Shown here one piece after another: positions 193-55,641 of a stretch of 64,000 nucleotides of DNA (positions are counted from its first letter, which is position 1; the number at the start of each line of letters is the position of its first letter). Made by a program: the position numbers and the translations under genes. The stretch is from a virus (lineage: Duplodnaviria > Caudoviricetes), in the IMG/VR virus record IMGVR_UViG_2823817231_000001, positions 1 through 64,000 of that record, one strand, 5' to 3'. The notes under the pieces were generated by a model. It had not been told where the DNA came from. It worked only from the letters and a program-made list of their open reading frames with translations, and did not search any database.

Positions 193-509
193 CCCGTTAC
201 GCCTCCTTGTCCCCGGATATAGGCCAAGGTCTGTTCTTCGGTTTGCGGCTGTTGGCCGGGCCGGGCCATGTTGGGCAAGCCAAGTTCAGAATAGCGCTTG
301 ATAATGTCAGCGCAGCCGACGTCTTTAGGCGGAAAGTGGTCCGTCACCAGATAGATATAGCCGGGCAGCATATTCGGCGGCAGGCGGCCGTAATCAAACT
401 TTCCGCAATCAAACACCCGGTCCGTAGGCATGTTGAATAGGGCAGCAATCGAGGCGGCGTGAAGTGTCTTACCGCATGCGGGCGGCCCATAAATGATGAC
501 GGTTTTCAT
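189..509 (-). CDS. Small P-loop (kinase/ATPase-like) protein
   Basis: IIYGPPACGKT Walker A; ATGA-coupled on both sides. Confidence 0.6.
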   Translation of the reverse strand: MKTVIIYGPPACGKTLHAASIAALFNMPTDRVFDCGKFDYGRLPPNMLPGYIYLVTDHFPPKDVGCADIIKRYSELGLPNMARPGQQPQTEEQTLAYIRGQGGVTG

Positions 510-1240
510 GCGAACAAACCTCCTGTTGCGGGCGCGATTTTGGCCCATTGGTCGGGATAGGCGGGGTAGTCCCCTGCCCGCTCCAGTTTGGTGCGGCAGG
601 GGGCGATCCAGTGGAGTTCGGTGGGGCGGTCGCCGTGGCCGGGGAGCCAGAGCAGCCAGCAATAGCTGGTGGCGGTGCTGGCCTTGCGGGGCTTGCCCTT
701 CTCGTCCAGGTTGAACGGATCGGGCTTGCCTGTCTCGATCAGGCGGCCACGAAACATGCCCACCCTTTCGGAGAATTGTAGGACATGGCTAGGCCGGTGC
801 TCGCTCGCGAACAGATCGTGGTGGCGGTCCTGACCTTCGAGGAAGGATGTGCGCACCAGCATGGCCACGCCCCGGCGCGCGTGGCGGCGGGCGGTGGCGA
901 TGAATTGTTCGGCCACCAGAAAGGGCGGGTTGGTGATGATCCATTCGACCGGCGGCCAAGGCGCATAGGTGTCGAGCGCGAGGAAATCGCACAGGCCGTT
1001 GTTGCCGTATTGATGGACATCGGTGGCGCGGACTTCCTCGAAATATTCGCCCAGCGCATGGGCCATGTGCATTTCGCCGCAGGCCGGTTCCCATGCGTGG
1101 AAGGATGACAGCGGTTCGCCGCGCGCGGCCAGCCATTCGCAGAAAGCGCGCGTGGCCCATGGAGGCGTCGGGAAATAGTCGAGCGCATCGGGCGCCGGGG
1201 CGCGCTGGGCCATGACGGCGGGGGAGCGGTTGGCAGTCAT
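506..1240 (-). CDS. SAM-dependent DNA amino-methyltransferase
   Basis: DYFPTPPW, WEPACGEMHM (motif I), ITNPPF (motif IV). Confidence 0.85.
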   Translation of the reverse strand: MTANRSPAVMAQRAPAPDALDYFPTPPWATRAFCEWLAARGEPLSSFHAWEPACGEMHMAHALGEYFEEVRATDVHQYGNNGLCDFLALDTYAPWPPVEWIITNPPFLVAEQFIATARRHARRGVAMLVRTSFLEGQDRHHDLFASEHRPSHVLQFSERVGMFRGRLIETGKPDPFNLDEKGKPRKASTATSYCWLLWLPGHGDRPTELHWIAPCRTKLERAGDYPAYPDQWAKIAPATGGLFA

Positions 1241-1809
1241 GCGGCTTGAACAGTCCGGATGGCGGCACAACATTGGAGCGAACGGTCACGCTCTATTGCA
1301 TTCTGATACTTTGCCTGCCGAGCATTACCATTCTGTGGATAATTTTGATTTCTACGTAACTGGCATCCTTTATCGGAAATCTGGTTTTCTGATATTAAAG
1401 ATAAACAGAATCCCAAGATATGGATACAAAAATGACAGATACGCAATACCAAAGCAGTATTGATCTCGTTGAAACCACCGGGTTTCATCGCGATTTTGAA
1501 TACATGATAACCATTTCCGCTTTTAATGGCTGCAAAGATGATTGGGTAAATATTTTTATTAACGGCCAATATCTTCGCATCCGGTTCGACATCTGCATCG
1601 ATAGTCTCGCTGATGTGCGGCATGGCGTTAATCTCAGAATAGGAGATTTTAAGCAGCTCGCGTTGGACGAGATCGCATCTGGAAGGTCGCAAACGCTGAC
1701 CCCGCGGGAGCAAGGATGGGCATGTGGCAGAGGTCATAGCGTCTCGCTTGGCCCGGCCAGCCATTCGCAGAACGCGCGTGTGGCCCAAGGTGGCGTTTGG
1801 AAATAGTCG
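1126..1809. repeat. 56-bp imperfect direct repeat (1126-1181 and 1754-1809)
   Basis: 50/56 identical; both encode DYFxTPPWATRAFCEWLA on the minus strand. Confidence 0.9.
1420..1806 (+). CDS. Low-GC inverted moron, hypothetical protein
   Basis: 128-aa ORF in AT-rich island, opposite to operon. Confidence 0.5.
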   Translation: MDTKMTDTQYQSSIDLVETTGFHRDFEYMITISAFNGCKDDWVNIFINGQYLRIRFDICIDSLADVRHGVNLRIGDFKQLALDEIASGRSQTLTPREQGWACGRGHSVSLGPASHSQNARVAQGGVWK

Positions 1810-40573: not shown

Positions 40574-41755
40574 TCATTTGACCCTCCTAAGGCGCGGTTT
40601 TCCGCCATTTTCTGAAACACTGGTGTCAATCACTTCGGGACTATTCCGGGACTGCTGAGCATTCTCCATGGTTGCGAGCAAATCTGCGTCCGTCACATGG
40701 GCATAACGCGCGGTCGTTTCGATGCGCGTGTGGCCGAGCAGTTTCTGGGCGGCCTTGAGGTTTCCGCTGTCGCGTACAAGGCGCGTGGCGGTCGTGTGGC
40801 GCAGATCGTGGAAGCGGAAATCCTTGATGCCCGAATCTGCCAGCGCCCGCCGCCATTGCCTGTCCCAGCCCTGCGCGCTGTAAGGGTAGCGTTCGCCCTT
40901 GAGCCGTCCCACGCGGTCACCACGGCGCGGCGAGGCGCGCTTGCAAACATAGGTGAATACGTGAGCCCCTGCGCGCGGGCGGTTGGCCAGAATTTCGAGC
41001 ATCCGCTGCGTCAGGGGAAAGGTGTGCCACACGCCGCCCTTGGTATAGACCGAGGCCGTGCCGCGCTTGAAATCCACCTTGGACCAGATCAGCGTCACCA
41101 ACGCATTCTTGCGCGCGCCGGACAGCAGGGCGAACTCGACCAGATCGGCCAGGTCGTTGTCGCTCTCGCGCAGCGTCTTGAACAGCGCGGCCTCTTCTTC
41201 CTCGCTGGCCTCGCGCACCCGCTCTTCGCTCTCGCGCAGCTTGTGCTTGGTCCACTCGATTTCGCCCACCCGATAACGGGCTGACAGGAAGCGGATCACT
41301 CGCTTGAGCAATTCGACTTCGCGGTTGACGGTCGCGCTCGACACCGGAGGCGGGGGCGGCAGAGACTTAGCCCCCTTCCCGCGCGGCTTCTTGGCGCCGC
41401 GATTCTTCACCCGCTCAGACCGGCGCACCGCAACAAACCGGCTAAGGGTCAGGTCGTCGATTTCATGGATCGGCATCCGGCCGCCGATGAGTCGGATCAG
41501 GTTGCCAAGCTGGTATTCGGTGGTCTTGGCCGCCTTGTCGAACTGCCCCTTGTCGCCCCAATAGAGGCCCGCGCCCTCGTCCAGAGTGATCGACGGCTTC
41601 TCGCGCTTGCCTGAGGCAATCTCGGTGCGCAGGTCGCGCTCGAAGCGTTCCGCGTCACGCTTGGCCGCGCAATGGGTTGAGCCATGATAGCGAACGCCCT
41701 TCATCTGGAAGTCGTAATGGTAATAGGGGCTGTTCTTTGGCCGATAGAGCGACAT
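40574..41755 (-). CDS. int: Tyrosine integrase
   Basis: SGAR, FHDLRHT, LLGH, TARYAH catalytic motifs. Confidence 0.95.
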   Translation of the reverse strand: MSLYRPKNSPYYHYDFQMKGVRYHGSTHCAAKRDAERFERDLRTEIASGKREKPSITLDEGAGLYWGDKGQFDKAAKTTEYQLGNLIRLIGGRMPIHEIDDLTLSRFVAVRRSERVKNRGAKKPRGKGAKSLPPPPPVSSATVNREVELLKRVIRFLSARYRVGEIEWTKHKLRESEERVREASEEEEAALFKTLRESDNDLADLVEFALLSGARKNALVTLIWSKVDFKRGTASVYTKGGVWHTFPLTQRMLEILANRPRAGAHVFTYVCKRASPRRGDRVGRLKGERYPYSAQGWDRQWRRALADSGIKDFRFHDLRHTTATRLVRDSGNLKAAQKLLGHTRIETTARYAHVTDADLLATMENAQQSRNSPEVIDTSVSENGGKPRLRRVK

Positions 41756-45987: not shown

Positions 45988-46038
45988 TTACCCCCCGGCA
46001 TCCGATCGATTCCCCAATAGCATAGCATACTTACGGAC

Positions 46039-46068
46039 AAAAACCCCGCCGAGCAGGGCTGGGCGGGG
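46039..46068 (-). terminator. Terminator after three-gene cassette
   Basis: A5-CCCCGCC...GGCGGGG. Confidence 0.55.
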
Positions 46069-46088
46069 CACAGATCATTGGATTCAAA

Positions 46089-46511
46089 TTAGTCCACAAC
46101 CGGAACATTTGAACTAACAAATGATATTTCTCTCGTAAACGTATCACCAAGAACAGTCACAGTAGCAACAATTGACAGACCCGCATGAACCTTTATTGAT
46201 CCAAATTCAGCCAAAATATTTCCGTTCTGGATAATACCTCTTTCGCCAGGGTCCATAGGTATAGTCAAAAGTGGAGGAAGCGCGGGCAAATCTGAAACAG
46301 ACTTATTCGATTTTGCGGTAATTTCGATAGTCGCCTCAACCGGCTCATCCGATATGTAGCGAATTATGGCGCCAACTGTGAACGACTTTACGTAACCGGA
46401 ATCCCCTTCGATGATAGCTTGGGTTCCGTGCAACCCCATTAAGCTCAAACGCCCCCCCAGCTCATGGCGAACGTCATCACAGAAAAAGATAAATACTTCA
46501 GGCTTTTCCAT
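46089..46511 (-). CDS. Beta-rich hypothetical protein (DUF6941-like)
   Basis: FFCDDVRHELGGRLSLMG N-terminal motif. Confidence 0.65.
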   Translation of the reverse strand: MEKPEVFIFFCDDVRHELGGRLSLMGLHGTQAIIEGDSGYVKSFTVGAIIRYISDEPVEATIEITAKSNKSVSDLPALPPLLTIPMDPGERGIIQNGNILAEFGSIKVHAGLSIVATVTVLGDTFTREISFVSSNVPVVD

Positions 46512-46959
46512 TTTCGATTGCCCTGAACAGTTCATTTGGCTCGACAGACAAAGACGAAGACAGCAATTTGAGCTTCTCATAGCTCAACTCGCGAGTGCCC
46601 CGCTCATACTCTGAAACAGCAGCTTGTGATGTTCCCAAAAGAACCCCGAGCTGCGTCTGCGACAGGCCGCTGCGTATACGGAGTGAACGAAGGGTTTCTC
46701 CACCGGCGGACCGAGCAAACGCTTCAGCCAACTCCAAGCTGACATCTTCAAGATGCTCAGCCACGTCTGGGAGGCTCAGGACCTCATCTAGAAACGAATC
46801 CAGATCCTGCCGACTATCAAGCGATGCAACACCGTTCCACTTCAGAACATACATGACTCGATTGTCGGGAGATCTGACATAATCCCCGCCCCGAGCCTGA
46901 CCAGCCCTAACCGTAACCGGATAGCCGCTTGAATCAGCGATGCGTGAAAATGTGTTCAT
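46498..46959 (-). CDS. XRE HTH antitoxin-like protein
   Basis: LRSLRIRSGLSQTQLGVLLGTSQAAVSEYERG. Confidence 0.8.
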   Translation of the reverse strand: MNTFSRIADSSGYPVTVRAGQARGGDYVRSPDNRVMYVLKWNGVASLDSRQDLDSFLDEVLSLPDVAEHLEDVSLELAEAFARSAGGETLRSLRIRSGLSQTQLGVLLGTSQAAVSEYERGTRELSYEKLKLLSSSLSVEPNELFRAIENGKA

Positions 46960-47332
46960 TGAATTCTCTTTCAATTCTCGCCCAAAGGACGGGGTCATTC
47001 TCATAATCTGCAGAACGCGGCATAATCGAAAAAAGACCAATGCGAGCGGTCCTTTGATCATGCACCCAAATCAAGCGCCATTGAGAGTGATGGACAAGCT
47101 TTACGCGATAAGCATCTATCCGCTTGCTCTGCAAACTTACCAGAGCCATGACATCTTTAACAACGCCATCGGAATAATCCTCATCGATCATACATTCCAA
47201 AAATGCAGCATCGTCCTTTAGCTCGCGTATCATCAAAGCCAGAGTCGCAGCTGCTCTCGCATCCGCCTCTCGACATGCGTGAAAGTCGGCAATCGCCCCT
47301 TGGGTAATCAGGAACTGATAGTCGACCGCCAC
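46934..47332 (-). CDS. RelE/HigB-like toxin
   Basis: YQFLITQGAIADF; YRVKL...WRLIWVHD...LFSIMPRSADY. Confidence 0.65.
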   Translation of the reverse strand: MAVDYQFLITQGAIADFHACREADARAAATLALMIRELKDDAAFLECMIDEDYSDGVVKDVMALVSLQSKRIDAYRVKLVHHSQWRLIWVHDQRTARIGLFSIMPRSADYENDPVLWARIEREFNEHIFTHR

Positions 47333-47670
47333 TCGCACCACCCTTATACCAGACTCGATATACACCAACTTAACGGATGGGCAATGGAAATTGCCGATTT
47401 GTCTCGTTTGAACCGCAATGACCAATCTTCAAAGATCCATCATCTGGCAATCAAACAACTCACTTATGCCGCCCATACCGCGCGCCAGTCCGGCAGTTGG
47501 CATAATGCCCTCCCCTATGACCCGATCCACCGAAGCCGCCGCGATCCGGCGTAGTGAACGCGGTATCCGTGGTGGCCGCGCGGCGGGGATGAAGTGAACA
47601 GGAGGGCAATTGTGGCCCGATTTGGCGCGATGGACACGATCAGATTGCGGATTTTTGCCGTCGCCCAAAT

Positions 47671-47685: not shown

Positions 47686-47762
47686 TTTCCTACAAAATCG
47701 CCTCGCCATATGAGCCCCGCCCCGGAGGAGCGGGTTAGCACATTCTAACGAGGAGGAATTTT

Positions 47763-48086
47763 GTGCCCAAATTGCTAGACCCAGTTTCGGGCATCGAATG
47801 CAAAATTGGATGCCCCGTGTGTGACATTGGCTGTCACCTCACTCGAGTCATGATTGCAAACCTCTATCACGAGATAGAGCAATTGCGCCGCGCACAGCCA
47901 CACGCAACGCGTCAGGAGTGGCTGGAGAACTTAGAGAACATCCGATCAGCTCAAGGCCATGTGCAAGCGTTGCAGACACGGCTTTTAAAGATGGGGCGGC
48001 CATTGGCGGCAGAATCGCCTCCAGAAGCGGAAGAACTACATCCGCTGAAATGGGAATATTCGTCTGGGCGGGATGCCCTTCATTGA
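47763..48086 (+). CDS. Putative SOS-inducible Cys-rich antirepressor, antisense to cI
   Basis: GAGGAGG RBS, GTG start, CKIGCPVCDIGC, downstream of LexA box. Confidence 0.5.
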   Translation: MPKLLDPVSGIECKIGCPVCDIGCHLTRVMIANLYHEIEQLRRAQPHATRQEWLENLENIRSAQGHVQALQTRLLKMGRPLAAESPPEAEELHPLKWEYSSGRDALH

Positions 48087-48279
48087 TACCCAGAGCCTCG
48101 ACCAGCTTCTTGGCCTCATCAAGTTTGATCATGCGAGGCTTTTTGCTGGGGTCGGTGGTGAAAATTTCAGCAACGCGCGAAGTGGGAATGCCAATCAGGC
48201 GTGAGATCTTCGCCTGAGTGGTTTCCCCCGTCTCAAGCTTGAGGCGCAATTCCGCCAATAATTCAGCATGGCTCAACAT
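47848..48279 (-). CDS. CI-like HTH repressor without peptidase domain
   Basis: TQAKISRLIGIPTSRVAEIF...IKLDEAKKLVEALG; divergent from cro. Confidence 0.8.
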   Translation of the reverse strand: MLSHAELLAELRLKLETGETTQAKISRLIGIPTSRVAEIFTTDPSKKPRMIKLDEAKKLVEALGINEGHPAQTNIPISADVVLPLLEAILPPMAAPSLKAVSATLAHGLELIGCSLSSPATPDALRVAVRGAIALSRDRGLQS

Positions 48280-48314
48280 TTTCCGACCATGCCAGCGATA
48301 GTCGCGCAAGTCCG

Positions 48315-48365
48315 CTTCGTTTATCGTAGTTTTTCCTTGCGATGGCACTACGTTTATCGTAGCAT
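48315..48365 (+). promoter_or_regulatory. PR with two operators (48315-48329, 48348-48362)
   Basis: TTGCGA-N17-TAGCAT; CT(T/A)CG-TTTAT-CGTAG palindromes matching OL. Confidence 0.82.
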
Positions 48366-48372
48366 TTTTGAC

Positions 48373-48621
48373 ATGCAGACAGTTTCCGACATTCTGGAGG
48401 CCCTTGGTGGCGCAGCCCGTGTAGCCAGAGAGGGGCGAATTCCCCTCACCACTGTTATTGGGTGGCGTGATGCCAATTTCATTCCGGAATGGCGCAGGCC
48501 GACGATCATTGATGTATCGAAGCATCAGGGGCGTCCCCTTTCTATCAAGGATTTCCCGCCTGTTGAGGCGCGTGTTCCCAGAAAGCGCCCCTCCCCCCAA
48601 ACCACAGGTAGGGCGGCATGA
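48373..48621 (+). CDS. Cro-like regulator
   Basis: ILEALGGAARVAREGRIPLTTVIGWR...IP. Confidence 0.78.
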   Translation: MQTVSDILEALGGAARVAREGRIPLTTVIGWRDANFIPEWRRPTIIDVSKHQGRPLSIKDFPPVEARVPRKRPSPQTTGRAA

Positions 48622-48629
48622 ACGGGCAT

Positions 48630-49400
48630 CTACTCATCCCTCGGCTGGGCGTCGACCAGGTTGGTGATGTGATAGCTCACGGGCTTCCCGCCAACCGTTT
48701 TGACGACACCATCAACCCAAAAGATTTGCTCGAACGGGTTCCCGTCGTGATGAAGGATGGCGTCCTTTACCGCGTCACCAGCGAAGGTGAGTTTTTTCTC
48801 TTTCGGCGTAAAACGGTCGATGATCCCAAAATCACCGCTTTTACCAGAAGGTGCATTGCGCATCTGGAAAAGTGCCATTGGCTCATTTTCAAACCGTATT
48901 TCATCAGGAAATTGCGAGTTCAGAAGGTGATTGGCATTATGGCTGATCGCGGACGCCTCCATTGGCGTCACGGTGTAGTGATTGATGATCGTTCCGCCCC
49001 TGTTGTCGATCATGTTTATGCGAGCGCCGTCTCCATCGATAGCAAGTGGGGCGACAAAGCTGGCGGCATTTTTGATCGTGGGTCGATCAAGCTCTTTGGC
49101 CTCTGGGGTCAGGTGCAAAATGGACTGCAGGACCGCATAAAACGAGCCTGCAAAGTCTTTGACCTTTTCGTAGGCATCGTAAAGGTCTGCTGCTTTCTGC
49201 CCAAGAGCGATCAACTCGGTAATCGTGCTGCCCGTTCTTACCTCGTGGACGAAAAGACGGGTTTCGCTATCGATCCCGTTTTCATCGGAGACGAAGCGCT
49301 TAAATTGATTTCCGAGCGCCGACAGAGAATTCGTCAAGTCGAGAAGTTCAAGCGGTCGCTTGTTTTTGTACTCGATTATTATGCTCGCTTCTTGAGTCAT
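48630..49400 (-). CDS. Inverted moron, hypothetical protein (256 aa)
   Basis: AAGGAG RBS, lower GC, globular composition. Confidence 0.78.
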   Translation of the reverse strand: MTQEASIIIEYKNKRPLELLDLTNSLSALGNQFKRFVSDENGIDSETRLFVHEVRTGSTITELIALGQKAADLYDAYEKVKDFAGSFYAVLQSILHLTPEAKELDRPTIKNAASFVAPLAIDGDGARINMIDNRGGTIINHYTVTPMEASAISHNANHLLNSQFPDEIRFENEPMALFQMRNAPSGKSGDFGIIDRFTPKEKKLTFAGDAVKDAILHHDGNPFEQIFWVDGVVKTVGGKPVSYHITNLVDAQPRDE

Positions 49401-49606
49401 TCCGATTCTCCTTTGGAGAGTGATGAACATAGGATGGCCGAAGCTAGCGGGGTTTCAAGCCCTGCCAGCGGAGGGCGCGCCGCATGATTTGCCCCCGCGC
49501 GAACAGTTCCAAGCCCGTCTCGGGTCGCCGTGGTGGGCAGAGCGCAACCGCCGCCCACCCCAATTCGATTTTCATCATTCCTCATACCACTGTGGGTAAC
49601 TGAAAC

Positions 49607-50059
49607 ATGACCCTGCAATCCACGGCAAAACGCCCTGTGTTTTCCGCTTATTCCGCGCTTTGCATCGTCGGTGACGCCCTCTCGCGCATCAAAAAGGACG
49701 ATGGCCTGACATGGGCCGATGTTGGCGCGGTCCTCGGCAAGAGCGAGGATCAGGCGGCAAAGTATGCGGCCGGTGAGGCCGACATGGGGCTGGTGTCCTT
49801 TGCGCGAGGAATGCGCGAATGGAATGGCCGCCTTTCCGGCGAACTGCTCCAGCTTTGCAAGGACAGCCGCCCAGGCGCAGCATCGGATCGGATCGACGCA
49901 ACGCGCGTCTTGCAGGCCGCTACCGCCCTGTCCGAGGCCCTGCAAACCGGCGACGAAATCACCATCGAGGCGATCCGCAAAAACCGTGCCGCGCTGGAGC
50001 GCGCCCGCGATGCCATCGACGCCCAACTCGGCAAGCTGCGCCCGGAGGCGGCTGCATGA
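49607..50059 (+). CDS. CII-like regulator
   Basis: HTH LTWADVGAVLGKSEDQAAKYAAG; position. Confidence 0.65.
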   Translation: MTLQSTAKRPVFSAYSALCIVGDALSRIKKDDGLTWADVGAVLGKSEDQAAKYAAGEADMGLVSFARGMREWNGRLSGELLQLCKDSRPGAASDRIDATRVLQAATALSEALQTGDEITIEAIRKNRAALERARDAIDAQLGKLRPEAAA

Positions 50060-50271
50060 TCCCCGATGGCCTCACTCCGTCCGAGCCCACGCTGGAAAGC
50101 ATCGAGGAGATTATCGCCTGCGCCGAGCGTCGGGTGAAGCGCGCGGGCCTGCGCCTTGAGCGGGCGCAGGAAGAACTTGGCGGCGCTGCTGCCGCGCTGG
50201 TGCGGGCGCGCGAGGACAAGGCGGCTTGGCTGCTGGCCAATCCTCAGGATCAGTTGGAAATGTTTGAGTGA
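50056..50271 (+). CDS. Small coiled-coil protein
   Basis: Coupled ORF ending QLEMFE. Confidence 0.55.
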   Translation: MIPDGLTPSEPTLESIEEIIACAERRVKRAGLRLERAQEELGGAAAALVRAREDKAAWLLANPQDQLEMFE

Positions 50272-50603
50272 TCTCTCTCCCCTTTCCACCCTCTAGCCTG
50301 TCGGGCCATGCCAAGGGGCATTGGCACGGAAAGGCTGCTGTCACAGCCAAGTGGCGCGCATGGGCCAAGGCAGCCGCTTTGGCGGCCAAGGTTCAGGCAC
50401 CTGCCACTGGTGATATTCTGGTGCGCGTGAAGTTCACGCCCCCGGATCGCCGGGGCGACCGGGTGAACTTTCCCAACCGCATGAAGCCGATCTTCGATGG
50501 CCTCGCGGATGCGTTGAAGGTCAACGATAGCCGGTTTCTGCCCAGCTTCGAGTTTGCGGCCCCTGAGAAGCCGGGCCGGATCGAGATTGAGATTTTGCCG
50601 TGA
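50268..50603 (+). CDS. RusA-like resolvase
   Basis: ISLPFPPS...PPDRRGDRVN...KPIFDGLADALKVND. Confidence 0.75.
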   Translation: MISLPFPPSSLSGHAKGHWHGKAAVTAKWRAWAKAAALAAKVQAPATGDILVRVKFTPPDRRGDRVNFPNRMKPIFDGLADALKVNDSRFLPSFEFAAPEKPGRIEIEILP

Positions 50604-51262
50604 GCGATCTCCTTGCCCGCCTCATTGCTGCCGGTACGCCTGCCGATCTTGTTGCCGAAGTGGCGATGGAGATTGCGCGCGCCGATGTGGTGCGGCGGCA
50701 GGAGGCCGAAGAAGCGGCCCGCAAGGAGAAGAAGCGCGCCGACACCGCCCGCCGCCAACGCGAGTTCAAGGCCCGCAACCGGCAAGAGGTAACGCAAAGT
50801 AACGCAGATAACGCGTTACCGGCGTTAGCTGGCGTTACCTCCCCCGCCCTTTCCCCCTCCCCCAATGAAATTAATTCTAACCCCCACCCCCATACCCACC
50901 CGGAAACAAACACCGCGCGCACACGAGGGACGCGCCTTCCGGTCGATTGGGTTCCCGAACCGCTGACGGGCGATGCGGCCAAAGCCATCGCCCAATGGCC
51001 ACCCGGCGCGCTGGAGCGCGAACTGGCCCGGTTTCGGGATTGGGCAGCATCCACCAGCGGCCCCAACGCCGTGAAGAAAGATTGGCAAGCGGCATGGCGC
51101 AACTGGCTCCGCAAAGCTCACGATGAAGGCAGGTATCTGAAACATGGCAACCACGAGCGAAACCAAAACCATCGGCCAGCAATTGCCCAGCCTCCCGGCG
51201 ATGGGCTCACCGAAGCCCTGCGGCGCCGAGGGGTCTATGATTGCGTTGGCTATGACCGCTGA
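50600..51262 (+). CDS. Replication initiator-like protein
   Basis: RGTRLPVDWVP...FRDW...KKDWQAAWRNW C-terminal domain; internal iterons. Confidence 0.75.
   Translation: MSDLLARLIAAGTPADLVAEVAMEIARADVVRRQEAEEAARKEKKRADTARRQREFKARNRQEVTQSNADNALPALAGVTSPALSPSPNEINSNPHPHTHPETNTARTRGTRLPVDWVPEPLTGDAAKAIAQWPPGALERELARFRDWAASTSGPNAVKKDWQAAWRNWLRKAHDEGRYLKHGNHERNQNHRPAIAQPPGDGLTEALRRRGVYDCVGYDR
50789..50880. other. Candidate origin within initiator gene
   Basis: Three TAACGC then three inverted GCGTTA at 9-10 bp spacing, then AT-rich AATGAAATTAATTCTAA. Confidence 0.6.
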
Positions 51263-51779
51263 GCAGCGCCGCGACCTGCGCGCCATTGCTGCCGCCCCAC
51301 TCCCGGTGCTGCGCACTTGCTCCGATGAGGGCTTTGACCGCTGCATGGCCGCGCTGAGCATCCTGCCGCGCCGCAAATCCGGATCGGACGAAGGCGCGGT
51401 GCTGCTTGAGGTCTATCGCCGCGCCCTTGGCGGCCTGCCCAGCGCGCAGCTTGTGTGGGTGGTCGATACGGCGCTGGTCCGCCTCAAGTGGTTTCCCACG
51501 ATTGCCGAATTGCTGGAGATCGCGGGTGAATGGCGGCGGGATGATGAACACGCCCGCGCGCAGGCCCGCGCTGAGGCTGCGCTGCGCCATGATCGGCAAG
51601 CCCGGTATGACGGGGCCATGACGGCACTTAGCCGCGGCGAAATGGATCAGGGGGCGATTGATGCTCTCCCGCTGCCCTGGGCGCAGGCTGCGGCGCGTCT
51701 GGGCTGGCTGGTGGAGAGCGCGGGCCGGTTCGCCCTGCCCCGCCCGGTGGCTGGGCGGATCAATGGGGAAGCGGCATGA
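51252..51779 (+). CDS. Helicase loader-like protein
   Basis: YRRALGGLP...KWFPTIAELLE; follows initiator. Confidence 0.6.
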   Translation: MTAEQRRDLRAIAAAPLPVLRTCSDEGFDRCMAALSILPRRKSGSDEGAVLLEVYRRALGGLPSAQLVWVVDTALVRLKWFPTIAELLEIAGEWRRDDEHARAQARAEAALRHDRQARYDGAMTALSRGEMDQGAIDALPLPWAQAAARLGWLVESAGRFALPRPVAGRINGEAA

Positions 51780-52015
51780 CCGAAGCGCAGGATCTCTTTG
51801 CGCGTCTGGGCTTCGATCAGCGTGGCCGTTTGGCTCCCCAGCCTGCGCCCGCTCAGGTGTCCGCGCCTGCCGCCACCCTCTCGGAATACATCTGCGACCT
51901 GTTCGTGAAGCGGCTGAGCGATGCGCAGCTAACCGAGCGCAGGACCGCAGGCGCCTATCGCAACATTCGGCCCGAATATCTCAAGGGCTATCACCAAGCA
52001 GCAAGGGGGAAGTGA
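51776..52015 (+). CDS. Hypothetical protein
   Basis: Coupled ORF. Confidence 0.55.
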   Translation: MTEAQDLFARLGFDQRGRLAPQPAPAQVSAPAATLSEYICDLFVKRLSDAQLTERRTAGAYRNIRPEYLKGYHQAARGK

Positions 52016-52398
52016 TGAATATCCAGAGCGCCGGGCAAATGGACCTGTTTCCGCATCGGGCCGAACTGAGCCCCGCCGAACAGGTGGTTTACCAGATGAT
52101 CTACGAGGCGGCCGAGAACAGCCAGCCCTGCCCGGTCAACATCGATTTCGAAGTCGCTGCGGGTTTCAATTCCAGCAGCATGGGTTCCGTCACGGTCGCG
52201 CGGCTTGAGGCCAAGGGCCTGATCAAGGTCGAGCGTTTTCAGAAATTCAGGGAGGTTGAAGTGATTGCAACGGGTAAGCGCACGGCGCGCGCATCGAACA
52301 TGCATGTGGTTCGCCCGCATGTGGCGCGTGGCTTTGGCGCCGGGTCGCGCGCACCGCGTCCGACCGACCGCAAGGGCTATAAGCGGGGGAGGCTCTGA
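52015..52398 (+). CDS. Winged-helix DNA-binding protein
   Basis: PCPVNIDF...ARLEAKGLIKVER; similar to C-terminus of 9677-10180. Confidence 0.68.
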   Translation: MNIQSAGQMDLFPHRAELSPAEQVVYQMIYEAAENSQPCPVNIDFEVAAGFNSSSMGSVTVARLEAKGLIKVERFQKFREVEVIATGKRTARASNMHVVRPHVARGFGAGSRAPRPTDRKGYKRGRL

Positions 52399-52400
52399 GC

Positions 52401-52940
52401 GTGGCTGAACTGAACGACAAGCAGCTTCGCTTTGTCGAGGAATATCTTGTGGACCTCAACGCCACGCAAGCGGCGATCCGCGCGGGCTACAGCGCGAAAA
52501 CGGCTTATTCGCAGGGGGAGCGCCTGTTGAGGCATGTTGAGGTTGCCAGAGCCATTACAGAGCGGAAAACGGACAGGTCGGTCAAGACCGGCATTGATGC
52601 GCAATGGGTACTGATGCGCCTTGCCGGTGATGCCGAGGCGGATCTGGCCGACCTGTATGATGATGCGGGCGGGCTCAAGCCTATCCACGAATGGCCGGTT
52701 GCGTTTCGCAAGGGGCTGGTCGCCGGTGTAGAGGTTGAGGAACTGTTTGAAGGGCAAGGCGAGAACCGCACGCAGATTGGCCGGGTTCGCAAGATCCGCC
52801 TCGCTGACCGCCTCAAGGTGGTGGAACTGATTGGCAAGCATGTCGATGTGCAGGCGTTCAAGGAGCGGATCGACCATGGCCTGACCGATGACCTTGCCGC
52901 CGCGATCATGGCGGGCAATGCGCGGGTGGCGGGCGCCTGA
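52401..52940 (+). CDS. terS: Terminase small subunit
   Basis: LNDKQLRFVEEYLVDLNATQAAIRAGYSAKTA. Confidence 0.93.
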   Translation: MAELNDKQLRFVEEYLVDLNATQAAIRAGYSAKTAYSQGERLLRHVEVARAITERKTDRSVKTGIDAQWVLMRLAGDAEADLADLYDDAGGLKPIHEWPVAFRKGLVAGVEVEELFEGQGENRTQIGRVRKIRLADRLKVVELIGKHVDVQAFKERIDHGLTDDLAAAIMAGNARVAGA

Positions 52941-54442
52941 TGGCAGAGGTCAGCCCCAAGATGGAATTGGCGCGGCGGATTGGCGAGTTTCGCTATTCGC
53001 CGCGCAGCCATGCCCTGTTCGCCTATCCGTGGGAGAGCGAACGCTTGCCGTCCTCCGGGCCGCGCACATGGCAGAATGAAATGTTCCTGCAAATCGAGGA
53101 GCATTTGAGCAGCCCGGCCACGCGGCACACGCCCTGCCGGATCGCGGTTGCATCAGGCCATGGTATCGGCAAGTCGGCCGGTATCTCGATGGTGAACAAG
53201 TGGGCGCTCGACACCTGTGTCGATACGCGCGTGGTGGTGACGGCCAACACCGAGGGCCAGCTTCTGACCAAGACCGGGCCGGAACTGACCAAGTGGTGCC
53301 AGTTGGCGCTGACCTCAGATTGGTTCAAGCCCAGCGCCACCAGCATCGCCTCGCTGATGCGCGGGCATGACAAGGCATGGCGCACGGACCTTGTGACCTG
53401 GAGCGAGAACAACACCGAGGCTTTCGCTGGCCTGCACAATCAGGGCAAGCGCATCGTCCTGATTTTCGACGAGGCATCGGGCATCGCGGCGAAGGTCTGG
53501 GAGGTGGCGCTGGGCGCGCTGACCGACGAGGACACCGAAATCCTGTGGCTGGCGTTCGGCAACCCGACCCAGAACACCGGGGCTTTCCGCGAGTGCTTTG
53601 GCAAGGCGCGCAATCTCTGGAAAACCAAGCAGATCGACAGCCGCACGGTGGAAGGCACGAACAAGGCCTATCTGGATGAACTGGTGCGGACCTATGGTGA
53701 GGAAAGCGATATTGCTAAGGTGCGTGTGCGCGGGCTGTTCCCCTCGGCCTCCTCGATGCAGTTTATCGCGCTGGATGCGGTAGAGGCCGCCCAGAAGCGC
53801 CAGCCCTTTGATGCGCTTGGCTCTGAGCCGGTGATCTTCGGCGTGGACTGCGCGCGCATGGGCGATGACGAGAGCGTGTTGGCGATCCGCTGCGGGCGCG
53901 ATGCCGTGTCGCGGCCGTGGAAGCGCTGGACCAAGATGGACAGCATGACGCTGGCCGGTGACATTGCGCTGGAGGCGGACAAATATCACCCCGATATGAT
54001 ATTCGTCGATGCGGGCAACATCGGGGCGGCCATCGTGGATCGCCTGCGCCAGTTGCGCCCCGATGTGCCGGTGGTCGAGGTATGGTTTGGCGCCGAGGGG
54101 CGCGATGCCGAACTGGAGCCGGGGGTGCGCGTCCACACCGCCAACAAGCGCGCCGAAATGTGGACCAAGATGCGCCATTGGCTGCGCGGCGCCAGCATCC
54201 CGCAAGAGGATCGCCTGCGGGACGATCTGATCGGGCCGACCTATTCATTTGGTGGTGACGACACCTCGATCCTGCTGGAGCGCAAGAAGGACATGAAGAA
54301 GCGCGGACTTCCCTCGCCAGATTGGGGCGATGCGCTGGCCTGCACCTTTGCCGAGCCGGTGATGCCGCGCGCGGTGCCGGGGTATCTCAATCCTGACAAT
54401 TACGGGGAAAGCGGAGGGGATCGGTATGCGGAACTCGACTGA
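52940..54442 (+). CDS. terL: Terminase large subunit
   Basis: SGHGIGKS, IFDEASG, GNPT, GVDCARMGDD, SPDWGDAL. Confidence 0.93.
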   Translation: MAEVSPKMELARRIGEFRYSPRSHALFAYPWESERLPSSGPRTWQNEMFLQIEEHLSSPATRHTPCRIAVASGHGIGKSAGISMVNKWALDTCVDTRVVVTANTEGQLLTKTGPELTKWCQLALTSDWFKPSATSIASLMRGHDKAWRTDLVTWSENNTEAFAGLHNQGKRIVLIFDEASGIAAKVWEVALGALTDEDTEILWLAFGNPTQNTGAFRECFGKARNLWKTKQIDSRTVEGTNKAYLDELVRTYGEESDIAKVRVRGLFPSASSMQFIALDAVEAAQKRQPFDALGSEPVIFGVDCARMGDDESVLAIRCGRDAVSRPWKRWTKMDSMTLAGDIALEADKYHPDMIFVDAGNIGAAIVDRLRQLRPDVPVVEVWFGAEGRDAELEPGVRVHTANKRAEMWTKMRHWLRGASIPQEDRLRDDLIGPTYSFGGDDTSILLERKKDMKKRGLPSPDWGDALACTFAEPVMPRAVPGYLNPDNYGESGGDRYAELD

Positions 54443-54756: not shown

Positions 54757-55641
54757 TTATCCGACATTAACACCAACATCACCGACTACAACGCAATGTA
54801 CAGGGGTCTTAAATTCAGGGAACAACTGGATAAAAACCAGAACCAAATTAGCATATCGCCCATCTGGATCTAACTTGAGTCTAATGTTGAACCATCCTTT
54901 GGCTTCGTCGTCGCACTTGAATTCAATGTTCCTATCTTTATGACTAGAAGTATCTCCCACGTATTTTTCAATTTCCTGTGTGCGATTTAGAATAATATCT
55001 TGCAGAAACGGCTTAAATTTATCCAGTCCAAGTTGTGCAACGGCAAATGCATGCGCCGTCTTCGCCAGCCATCGCAGATACATGTCTCGAGAAATACTTC
55101 CTATTTGGGCCTTCACAAATTTTGCGCCTTTATCTCTTCCTACTTCTTGGCAAATAGAATCTATTGCAGCACGATCTCCAGTGTCCCACAAGCGCCCTTT
55201 TTCGAAACCAGGCGCTACTGGAAGCCCAAAAATCGCTGGCGGAGGTGATTCCCAAAGCACAATATACCATGGGGCTTGGGCAAGCGGAATTTTCTTGTAA
55301 CCCAGATCACGGAGTTGTTGGCCATGTTTGTCAATTTCCGTGAAGGTAATCCTCATTTCACTGGGGCGATCTTTTGGTTTTGTCCTTGAAGGTGCTCCAA
55401 ATTTCGCACGAAAGGTTCCAAGCTGCTTTTTTAGAACTTCTTGCTCATAACGCTGGATAATTGCCTGACACTTTACACAACATGCGTCCTTAATGCTGAT
55501 AACATGGGCACCAAGGGCATACGGAATGACGTGCTCATCAGTAAGATTTTCCGAATGATTATTGCAATAAATACAACAACCAGGACTGGTTATTTTAATA
55601 GGCTTGAAATTATCTAGACTAATTATAGTAGAATTCATCAT
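54757..55641 (-). CDS. AT-rich HNH endonuclease-domain protein (moron)
   Basis: CIYC...LTDEHVIPYALG...CVKC plus about 230-aa extension. Confidence 0.82.
   Translation of the reverse strand: MMNSTIISLDNFKPIKITSPGCCIYCNNHSENLTDEHVIPYALGAHVISIKDACCVKCQAIIQRYEQEVLKKQLGTFRAKFGAPSRTKPKDRPSEMRITFTEIDKHGQQLRDLGYKKIPLAQAPWYIVLWESPPPAIFGLPVAPGFEKGRLWDTGDRAAIDSICQEVGRDKGAKFVKAQIGSISRDMYLRWLAKTAHAFAVAQLGLDKFKPFLQDIILNRTQEIEKYVGDTSSHKDRNIEFKCDDEAKGWFNIRLKLDPDGRYANLVLVFIQLFPEFKTPVHCVVVGDVGVNVG

Follow-up and report, generated by a model that had tools for sequence, protein, structure and literature searches.

Why does the strand opposite an inverted gene in a phage early operon stay free of stop codons over 289 codons, and why does this open reading frame (ORF) begin in the stop codon of one ORF and end on the start codon of the next? 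The locus that raises this question lies in a stretch of phage DNA (Duplodnaviria; Caudoviricetes) comprising positions 1 to 64,000 of the IMG/VR virus record IMGVR_UViG_2823817231_000001; this whole stretch of 64,000 nucleotides (nt) is called the window here. Between an ORF at the position of cro and a gene earlier labelled cII-like, a gene on the minus strand is spanned by a plus-strand ORF, which we call the bridge. An original prediction, made from the letters of the window alone, had proposed that this ORF carries translation across the inverted gene. The arrangement that it described, a stop-free ORF of 289 codons with ATGA at both ends over an inverted gene for 256 amino acids (aa), was confirmed in all its coordinates:

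48618-49487, plus strand: bridge ORF, 289 codons, codon-aligned antisense to the inverted gene, with an ATGA overlap at each end
48630-49400, minus strand: inverted accessory gene (moron), 256 aa, family phrog_9226 (PHROG E 7.7e-36)
48373-48621, plus strand: cro-like ORF, 82 aa, first link of the plus-strand ORF chain, labelled from its position and divergent from a helix-turn-helix (HTH)-like gene
49484-49603, plus strand: 39-codon ORF, whose ATG overlaps the bridge stop and which ends 3 nt before the next gene
49607-50059, plus strand: phrog_16695 gene (PHROG E 4e-42), the gene earlier labelled cII-like

On balance we lean towards the view that the bridge is a cis-acting translation relay, which would be held open by selection on being translated and not on its product. 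Ribosomes that stop at the stop codon of the cro-like ORF would restart at the overlapping ATG of the bridge, read across the antisense of the insert and then stop on the ATG of the next ORF. With such a relay the downstream genes would stay coupled in translation, and ribosomes would continue to cover the transcript. The insert itself probably came by illegitimate insertion that duplicated the stop/start junction, and only inserts that could be read between the spare start and the spare stop would have survived. We infer that the bridge is translated, and that the benefit is coupling, protection of the transcript, or both.

The Bridge Is Linked to Operon Genes at Both Ends

The ATG of the bridge at 48618 overlaps the TGA of the cro-like ORF at 48619-48621 (ATGA at 48618-48621), and the 39-codon ORF begins at 49484 with an ATG that overlaps the TGA of the bridge at 49485-49487 (ATGA at 49484-49487). 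As in a coupled operon, its start overlaps an upstream stop and its stop overlaps a downstream start. On the plus strand, twelve consecutive ORFs extend from 48373 to 54442 with junctions of −4 to +4 nt, with overlaps of 11 and 1 nt at two of them. Both the bridge and the 39-codon ORF are links of this chain, and their junctions are of the types found between the real genes of the operon.

The bridge frame is open from stop to stop only over 48612-49487, barely past the gene on the opposite strand, and the three plus-strand frames over 48630-49400 contain 0, 12 and 13 stops. None of the 21 leucine and 15 serine codons of the inverted gene is TTA, CTA or TCA (0/36). In this the bridge is like a shadow ORF, being codon-aligned antisense to a real gene and stop-free solely through the absence of these three codons, and the caveat of the original prediction that this absence suffices is correct for this window taken alone. 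That the minus strand is the coding one, as had been proposed, is borne out by the phrog_9226 assignment; the translation of the bridge has no match to a Pfam or PHROG family, and its guanine plus cytosine (GC) content by codon position (0.61/0.39/0.56) is unlike the coding pattern of this genome.

Antisense Frames Are Open in Operon-Inverted Homologues

The protein of the inverted gene has 35 homologues, 31 of which are 54-77% identical over 96-100% of the query; these 31 close homologues (P0001-P0031) are known from protein only. DNA was obtained from 13 further places and gave 12 distinct homologues beside the window after weak, duplicate and partial rows had been dropped, so that the DNA comparison comprises 13 distinct loci. 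Left out were L003, L018 and L036 (the window itself or repeats of loci already in the set), L007 and L017 (duplicates of L005 and L015), L006 (a weak partial match with 4 stops) and L010 (partial, and the same element as L009).

Phage genes of the other strand flank the gene in L002, L008 and L011, where it is inverted as in the window. The neighbours are a YdaS/Cro-like gene (PF15943) in L002, RusA (phrog_34) on one side and a 68-aa ORF with a DNA methyltransferase gene (phrog_757) on the other in L008, and phrog_7669 and a primase-like gene in L011. The homologue is co-oriented with its neighbours in a Bordetella phage, L013, L015 and L016, and it stands in chromosomal or insertion sequence (IS)-associated settings in L004, L005, L012, L014 and L009, the context of L009 being only partly visible. 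No antisense stop is present in the window, L002, L008 and L011, while each of the other nine homologues has 3-15. An open antisense frame is thus found in 4/4 operon-inverted copies versus 0/9 others (Fisher p 0.0014), and the equally open homologues outside operons that would speak against the original prediction were not seen among these loci.

Codon use follows the same division. In the four operon-inverted copies, CTN/TCN codons end in A in 0/104 cases versus 61/405 in their other four-fold families (p 6e-7), while the nine homologues in other contexts show no depletion (41/237 versus 158/838), and the two GC-rich ones among these nine have 6/63 versus 24/198. The genes flanking the four operon-inverted copies use CTA/TCA in 27/477 cases; at that rate the probability of 0 of 104 is 0.002. 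Codon usage can therefore explain the openness of the window copy alone, but not that of the four copies together.

The bridge frame is 39.5% identical to its counterpart in L008, versus 58.4% for the opposite (gene) frame. Since the bridge frame is less conserved than the gene frame, its product does not appear to be what is selected; if anything is selected at the bridge, it is the act of translation.

Unrelated Inverted Genes at the Same Slot

Among 400 other genomes of the same family, a search with the phrog_16695 gene gave 17 loci in 15; it also gave 7 viral contigs. In L020, L043, L044 and L046-L048, all genes from the cro-like to the phrog_16695 gene are co-oriented with overlapping junctions, and no inverted genes are present. 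Because co-oriented, overlap-linked genes fill the slot in these relatives, we place it inside the operon. Loci of other relatives carry unrelated inverted genes at that slot.

We surveyed 17 inverted genes in phage early operons, including the four phrog_9226 copies, by the same criteria as a control that consisted of the antisense of co-oriented genes in the host genome (5.73 Mb, 62.9% GC; gene sets and controls are our own crude gene calls). The aligned frame was open in 15 of the 17; 12 genes were spanned from before the gene, and in 11 the spanning ORF was linked at both ends: the window, L008, two genes each in L002 and L021, and one each in L024, L027, L032, L042 (with a double ATGA) and L045. 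Doubly linked spanning ORFs were much rarer in the control (11/17 versus 66/1568, Fisher p 2e-11). This held for small genes (8/13 versus 14/174, p 9e-6) and for mid-sized ones (3/4 versus 29/520, p 8e-4), and a conservative count of independent cases, from which two ambiguous L021 genes were dropped and in which homologous cases were merged, still gave 4/6 (p 1e-3). Stops in the bridges of related prophages, which would have counted against the original prediction, were mostly absent: beside the 11 doubly linked cases, two genes had a stop in the aligned frame and the rest were partial. The survey leaves out L029 and L034, near-duplicates of L028 and L023, and the minus-strand ORF 1080-1571 of L031, which overlaps two plus-strand ORFs supported by their GC content at third codon positions (GC3).

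The small inverted genes and bridges of L021, L024, L027 and L002 have no PHROG match on either strand. A conserved 77-aa gene (N-terminus MxKDxKAR, C-terminus ND) is divergent from the phrog_16695 gene in L002, L027, L028, L030 and L032; it lies at 1432-1665 in L002 and just upstream of the phrog_16695 gene in the other four loci. In this family the inverted frame outscores the bridge frame in 10/10 pairs. L020 carries a C5 DNA methyltransferase gene (299-1477, plus strand; phrog_363, E 3.8e-72) with a 385-codon antisense shadow ORF (368-1525, minus strand). The GC3 of this shadow ORF (0.73) exceeds that of the real gene (0.63), so GC3 alone can pick the wrong strand.

Ends, Phase and Duplicated Junctions

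The linked ends are not confined to one slot or one motif. In L008, where the gene order is RusA, bridge, 68-aa ORF and methyltransferase, a double ATGA occurs in a different slot, and the antisense ORF (1800-2657) extends from the RusA stop to the ATG of the 68-aa ORF (GC3 0.84). In L002, GTGA stands at both bridge ends. Direct repeats that contain the stop/start junction flank the inserts in L008, L011 and L021, and are the top repeat family of each region:

L008, 1796-1814 and 2650-2668: 17/19 nt matching, 854 nt apart
L011, 1952-1966 and 2866-2880: 15/15 nt matching, 914 nt apart
L021, 371-387 and 836-852: 17/17 nt matching, 465 nt apart

In the window, L002 and L042, exact junction repeats of at least 9 nt were not found by a repeat search; inspection by eye shows 8/10 matching positions between the flanks of the window insert. 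The repeats are probably target junctions that were duplicated at insertion, so that a spare start remains at one flank of the insert and a spare stop at the opposite flank; the varying repeat length points to staggered illegitimate joints and not to a transposase. Such duplication accounts for the start and stop motifs, but not for their shared phase: spare start, aligned frame and spare stop agreed in phase in 7/8 checks over four loci, where 1 in 3 is expected (p 0.003).

In prophage 1 of the window, a 128-aa plus-strand gene (1420-1806) lies inside a minus-strand operon and is spanned by a codon-aligned minus-strand ORF of 261 codons (1237-2022), whose TGA shares an ATGA (1237-1240) with an ATG that is in the frame of the 506-1273 gene. 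The insert is flanked by a 64-nt direct repeat (1123-1186 and 1751-1814, 87.5% identical) of the 5′ part of the 506-1273 gene, which points to a long target duplication.

Chance Expectation and Alternative Explanations

The chief alternative, serious though in our view rather unlikely, is that the bridge is a shadow ORF that arose by chance from the codon bias of a GC-rich host, and that its ATGA ends are coincidence or leftovers of a duplicated junction, since a duplication by itself would supply start and stop motifs on the two sides; on this view the ORF is neither translated nor under selection. Long frame −1 antisense ORFs are attributed to codon usage in GC-rich genomes in a passage of PMC3454372 (citing Merino 1994 and Silke 1997). 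In the host genome, 41% of 549 genes of 240-300 codons lack TTA, CTA and TCA and are fully open on the antisense strand; within this size class the three codons are missing from 1/10 genes at GC 0.50-0.54 and from 7/51 at GC 0.54-0.58, and among genes with GC below 0.57 from 8/84. The window itself holds antisense ORFs of 562 and 586 codons over structural genes, and the shadow ORF over the L020 methyltransferase has a higher GC3 than the gene. Double linkage also occurs by chance: among 576 genes with a spanning aligned antisense ORF, the ORF start overlaps a stop in 92, the ORF stop is overlapped by a start in 207 and both hold in 36 (6.25%), or in 8 (1.4%) if, besides the two 4-nt overlaps, the upstream frame must have 60 codons or more and the downstream ORF 30 or more. 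For the window copy, 0/26 CTN/TCN codons ending in A at the genome's low-GC rate of 8.8% corresponds to a P of about 0.09. The window alone is within chance, as about 10-17% of comparable genes lack the three codons. What chance leaves unexplained is that 4/4 operon-inverted homologues are open versus 0/9 others, that CTA/TCA is absent from the four although their flanking genes use it, that start, frame and stop share their phase, and that doubly linked spanning ORFs make up 11/17 cases versus 4-8%.

Several observations besides these frequencies weigh against a translation relay. Lone inverted genes of the chromosome show no excess of bridges (11/312 versus 66/1568 in the control), so the effect is not general to inverted genes; this genome-wide result is expected if most lone inverted genes are separate transcription units. 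The contrast of 4 versus 9 homologues is a small sample whose context groups were assigned after the open frames were known, and the GC-matched (GC-rich) rows alone give 4/4 versus 0/2 (p 0.07). A null based on A-ending use in other four-fold families was dropped and replaced by the group contrasts and the flanking genes, because it overestimates 2-3 fold in this genome; it had predicted 4.0-7.6 stops for the four open copies, and for ten others it fitted the data (79 expected, 66 observed). The loci of the survey share ancestry, and for two inverted genes of L021 the coding strand is ambiguous by GC3. Stops in the aligned frame are present in one small inverted gene of L002 and one of L030, the ORF begins inside the inverted gene in L028 and L030, and the L011 ORF uses the stop of the duplicated junction but starts 32 nt past the spare ATG, which is out of phase. 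No bridge spans the inverted HNH gene that follows the terminase, in line with what the original prediction had said of inverted late-region genes; the plus-strand ORF chain breaks at this gene. The features concerned, and the repressor candidate to which we come below, are as follows:

52940-54442, plus strand: large terminase, last ORF of the chain
54757-55641, minus strand: inverted HNH_5 (Pfam) gene, GC 0.42, 6 antisense stops, between the large terminase and the next late gene
47848-48279, minus strand: cI-like repressor candidate, 143 aa, divergent from the cro-like ORF and labelled from its position

The proposed benefit has to be qualified as well. The 39-codon ORF may not need coupling, because it has its own GGAGG about 10 nt upstream of its ATG. 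On the plus strand over the insert, G is at least as frequent as C, so that this stretch would be a poor site for Rho to load. Together these features argue that neither coupling nor protection from Rho is strictly required. Terminator-like hairpins on the plus strand of the bridge (including 48775-48790 and 49349-49362) are not in excess, with 4 found and 2.5 expected in shuffles. Of the earlier proposal that the frame is kept open for coupling and for the avoidance of Rho-dependent termination, the open, in-phase frame has thus gained comparative support, while the Rho part is mildly disfavoured.

Two other explanations would make a relay unnecessary. The slot could be the boundary of two transcription units, with divergent promoters in 49401-49606 and nothing crossing the insert, which we regard as improbable. 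A 206-nt spacer does separate the two start codons, and the 77-aa gene divergent from the phrog_16695 gene in five relatives suggests a regular divergent arrangement. The inverted gene is also co-oriented with the cI-like gene, with 8 nt between it and the stop of the cro-like ORF. As no terminator-like site follows it, transcription of the gene would continue across the cro-like ORF in antisense and on towards the cI-like gene. This leftward layout may resemble that of the leftward establishment transcript of lambda. A consensus scan, weak for non-enteric promoters, found no promoter-like site on either strand in 49401-49606; relatives without inverted genes link the cro-like to the phrog_16695 gene through overlapping co-oriented genes, and a boundary predicts no in-phase linked ORFs across inserts. 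That the plus-strand ORF encodes a functional protein of 289 aa, in a true antisense overlapping gene pair, is hardly credible in our view. The length of the ORF, its ATG start and its operon context would fit, and antisense overlapping genes have reportedly been found in bacteria. Against a selected protein stand the lack of a Pfam or PHROG match, the lower identity to L008 than that of the opposite frame, the interruption of the frame in 9/9 homologues outside operons and the codon-position GC, which is not the coding pattern of this genome.

The Inverted Gene and Its Neighbourhood

The full minus-strand ORF (48630-49430) has 266 codons; the ATG at 49400, preceded by AGGAG, gives the 256-aa form. 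Its alignment to phrog_9226 is full-length (residues 4-250 on profile positions 11-256 of 261); to our knowledge this is a family without known function. The gene has no PADLOC or Pfam match. Its AlphaFold model (pLDDT, predicted local distance difference test, 83) has no match in the PDB at E 0.001 or better by Foldseek, and a VIA-align search with the model gave a best Z of 5.6 for a weak OB-like resemblance of residues 163-256, which is below the trusted level. In the Atlas the nearest named cluster is DUF7946 at 0.90, a lead only.

With a GC of 0.51 versus 0.63 for the genome, the gene is atypical in composition, and it is absent at that position from L043, L044 and L046-L048, as expected of a moron. 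On the minus strand over 47700-50200, the consensus scan, which does not cover sites other than sigma-70-type ones, found no promoter-like or terminator-like site except two outside the gene flanks. In one sequencing run examined for expression, a 263-nt contig over 49362-49590 was present and nothing lay across the junctions.

The gene has no relative in a single-protein scan of genome contigs and none in an alignment scan of viral contigs. Searches gave matches in 3 other genomes of 400 at order level and in 5 of 400 at class level, all distant, and a family search around the L002 genome gave weak matches only (L037-L041). The host genome contains no paralogue and no empty site. Outside phages, the homologues in L005, L012 and L016 adjoin IS1595-like transposase ORFs, as judged by eye from the translations, and in L005 and L016 a small HTH-like ORF also lies beside the homologue.

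The names cro and cII-like used in the original prediction proved to be positional labels only. The cro-like ORF has no Pfam or PHROG match, and none to PF15943 or PF14549 (YdaS/Cro) up to E 1. L046 and L048 encode relatives of 68 aa, which share 44-47% identity with it over residues 1-62 and have sub-threshold YdaS/P22_Cro matches only (E 0.005-0.03); the last 20 residues of the ORF in the window are absent from them. The phrog_16695 gene has no Pfam match up to E 1 and no similarity to a cII or other regulator family, its one match being the PHROG family itself. The 39-codon ORF has no Pfam or PHROG match and no paralogue in the genome. The cI-like candidate has a weak HTH_3 match (E 0.013, under the Pfam cutoff), and L048 encodes a 34% identical relative next to a cro homologue. 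In the 93-nt spacer between the cI-like and cro-like genes, a 12-nt word occurs twice (48318-48329 and 48351-48362), the second copy being part of a short palindrome flagged by the terminator scan; the two copies are candidate operators. Between the integrase (40574-41755) and the immunity region, a block of low GC (0.44-0.50) at 46000-47450 holds an HTH_3 gene (46498-47061) and two 163-aa ORFs without a family match.

Relation to Known Systems and Significance

The bridge has much in common with shadow ORFs: it is codon-aligned antisense, needs only the absence of TTA, CTA and TCA, has no family and poor protein conservation, and its kind is common in this genome. Unlike them, it plugs into real flanking genes at both ends, its stop-free state tracks the context of the homologues, and the three codons are depleted beyond their use in flanking genes. 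Overlapping stop and start codons (ATGA) mediate translational coupling, and an early stop of translation causes Rho-dependent polarity. The junctions of the bridge are of the same types as those of the operon's real genes, and the proposed benefit is what these mechanisms predict. In contrast to classical coupling, the unit that is coupled would have no selected product, being instead the opposite strand of an inverted gene.

Morons, reportedly described by Juhala et al. in 2000, are said to be accessory genes between conserved phage genes that classically have their own promoter and terminator. The inverted gene resembles them in its lower GC, its absence from operon relatives, its conserved neighbours and the occurrence of homologues in several unrelated contexts. 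Unlike classical morons it is inverted in an overlap-linked operon, 8 nt from the upstream gene and with no terminator-like site found by the scan, and a duplicated junction flanks the insert in three loci. In leader peptides and upstream ORFs, translation matters and not the product. The role proposed for the bridge is likewise purely in cis, with an unconstrained peptide sequence; in contrast to leader peptides, the bridge has 289 codons and overlaps a gene on the opposite strand, and its part would be to join two genes and not to sense a signal. An antisense ORF as a coupled-operon link over inverted cargo was not found in a full-text literature search, whose coverage excludes most subscription journals. 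Shadow ORFs, ATGA coupling, polarity and morons are known; their combination is, as far as this search shows, undescribed.

It may be, although we propose this tentatively, that in GC-rich temperate phages with overlap-chained early genes inverted cargo is tolerated only as a cassette readable on both strands, with the junction duplicated and the antisense held in phase and free of stops, so that ribosomes pass from the spare start to the spare stop. If true, this would place a constraint on the mosaicism of phage genomes, as cargo inverted within a coupled operon would need an antisense strand that can be translated, and it would set a general rule, open to selection, for the sites and the manner in which lysogen-expressed cargo inserts. 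It would also account for some of the long antisense ORFs that annotators discard, and a simple design rule would follow for inserts into phage operons without polar effects. The synonymous codon choice of such cargo, with no TTA, CTA or TCA, would be dictated by the opposite strand, so that the codon use of an accessory gene would be predictable from its orientation.

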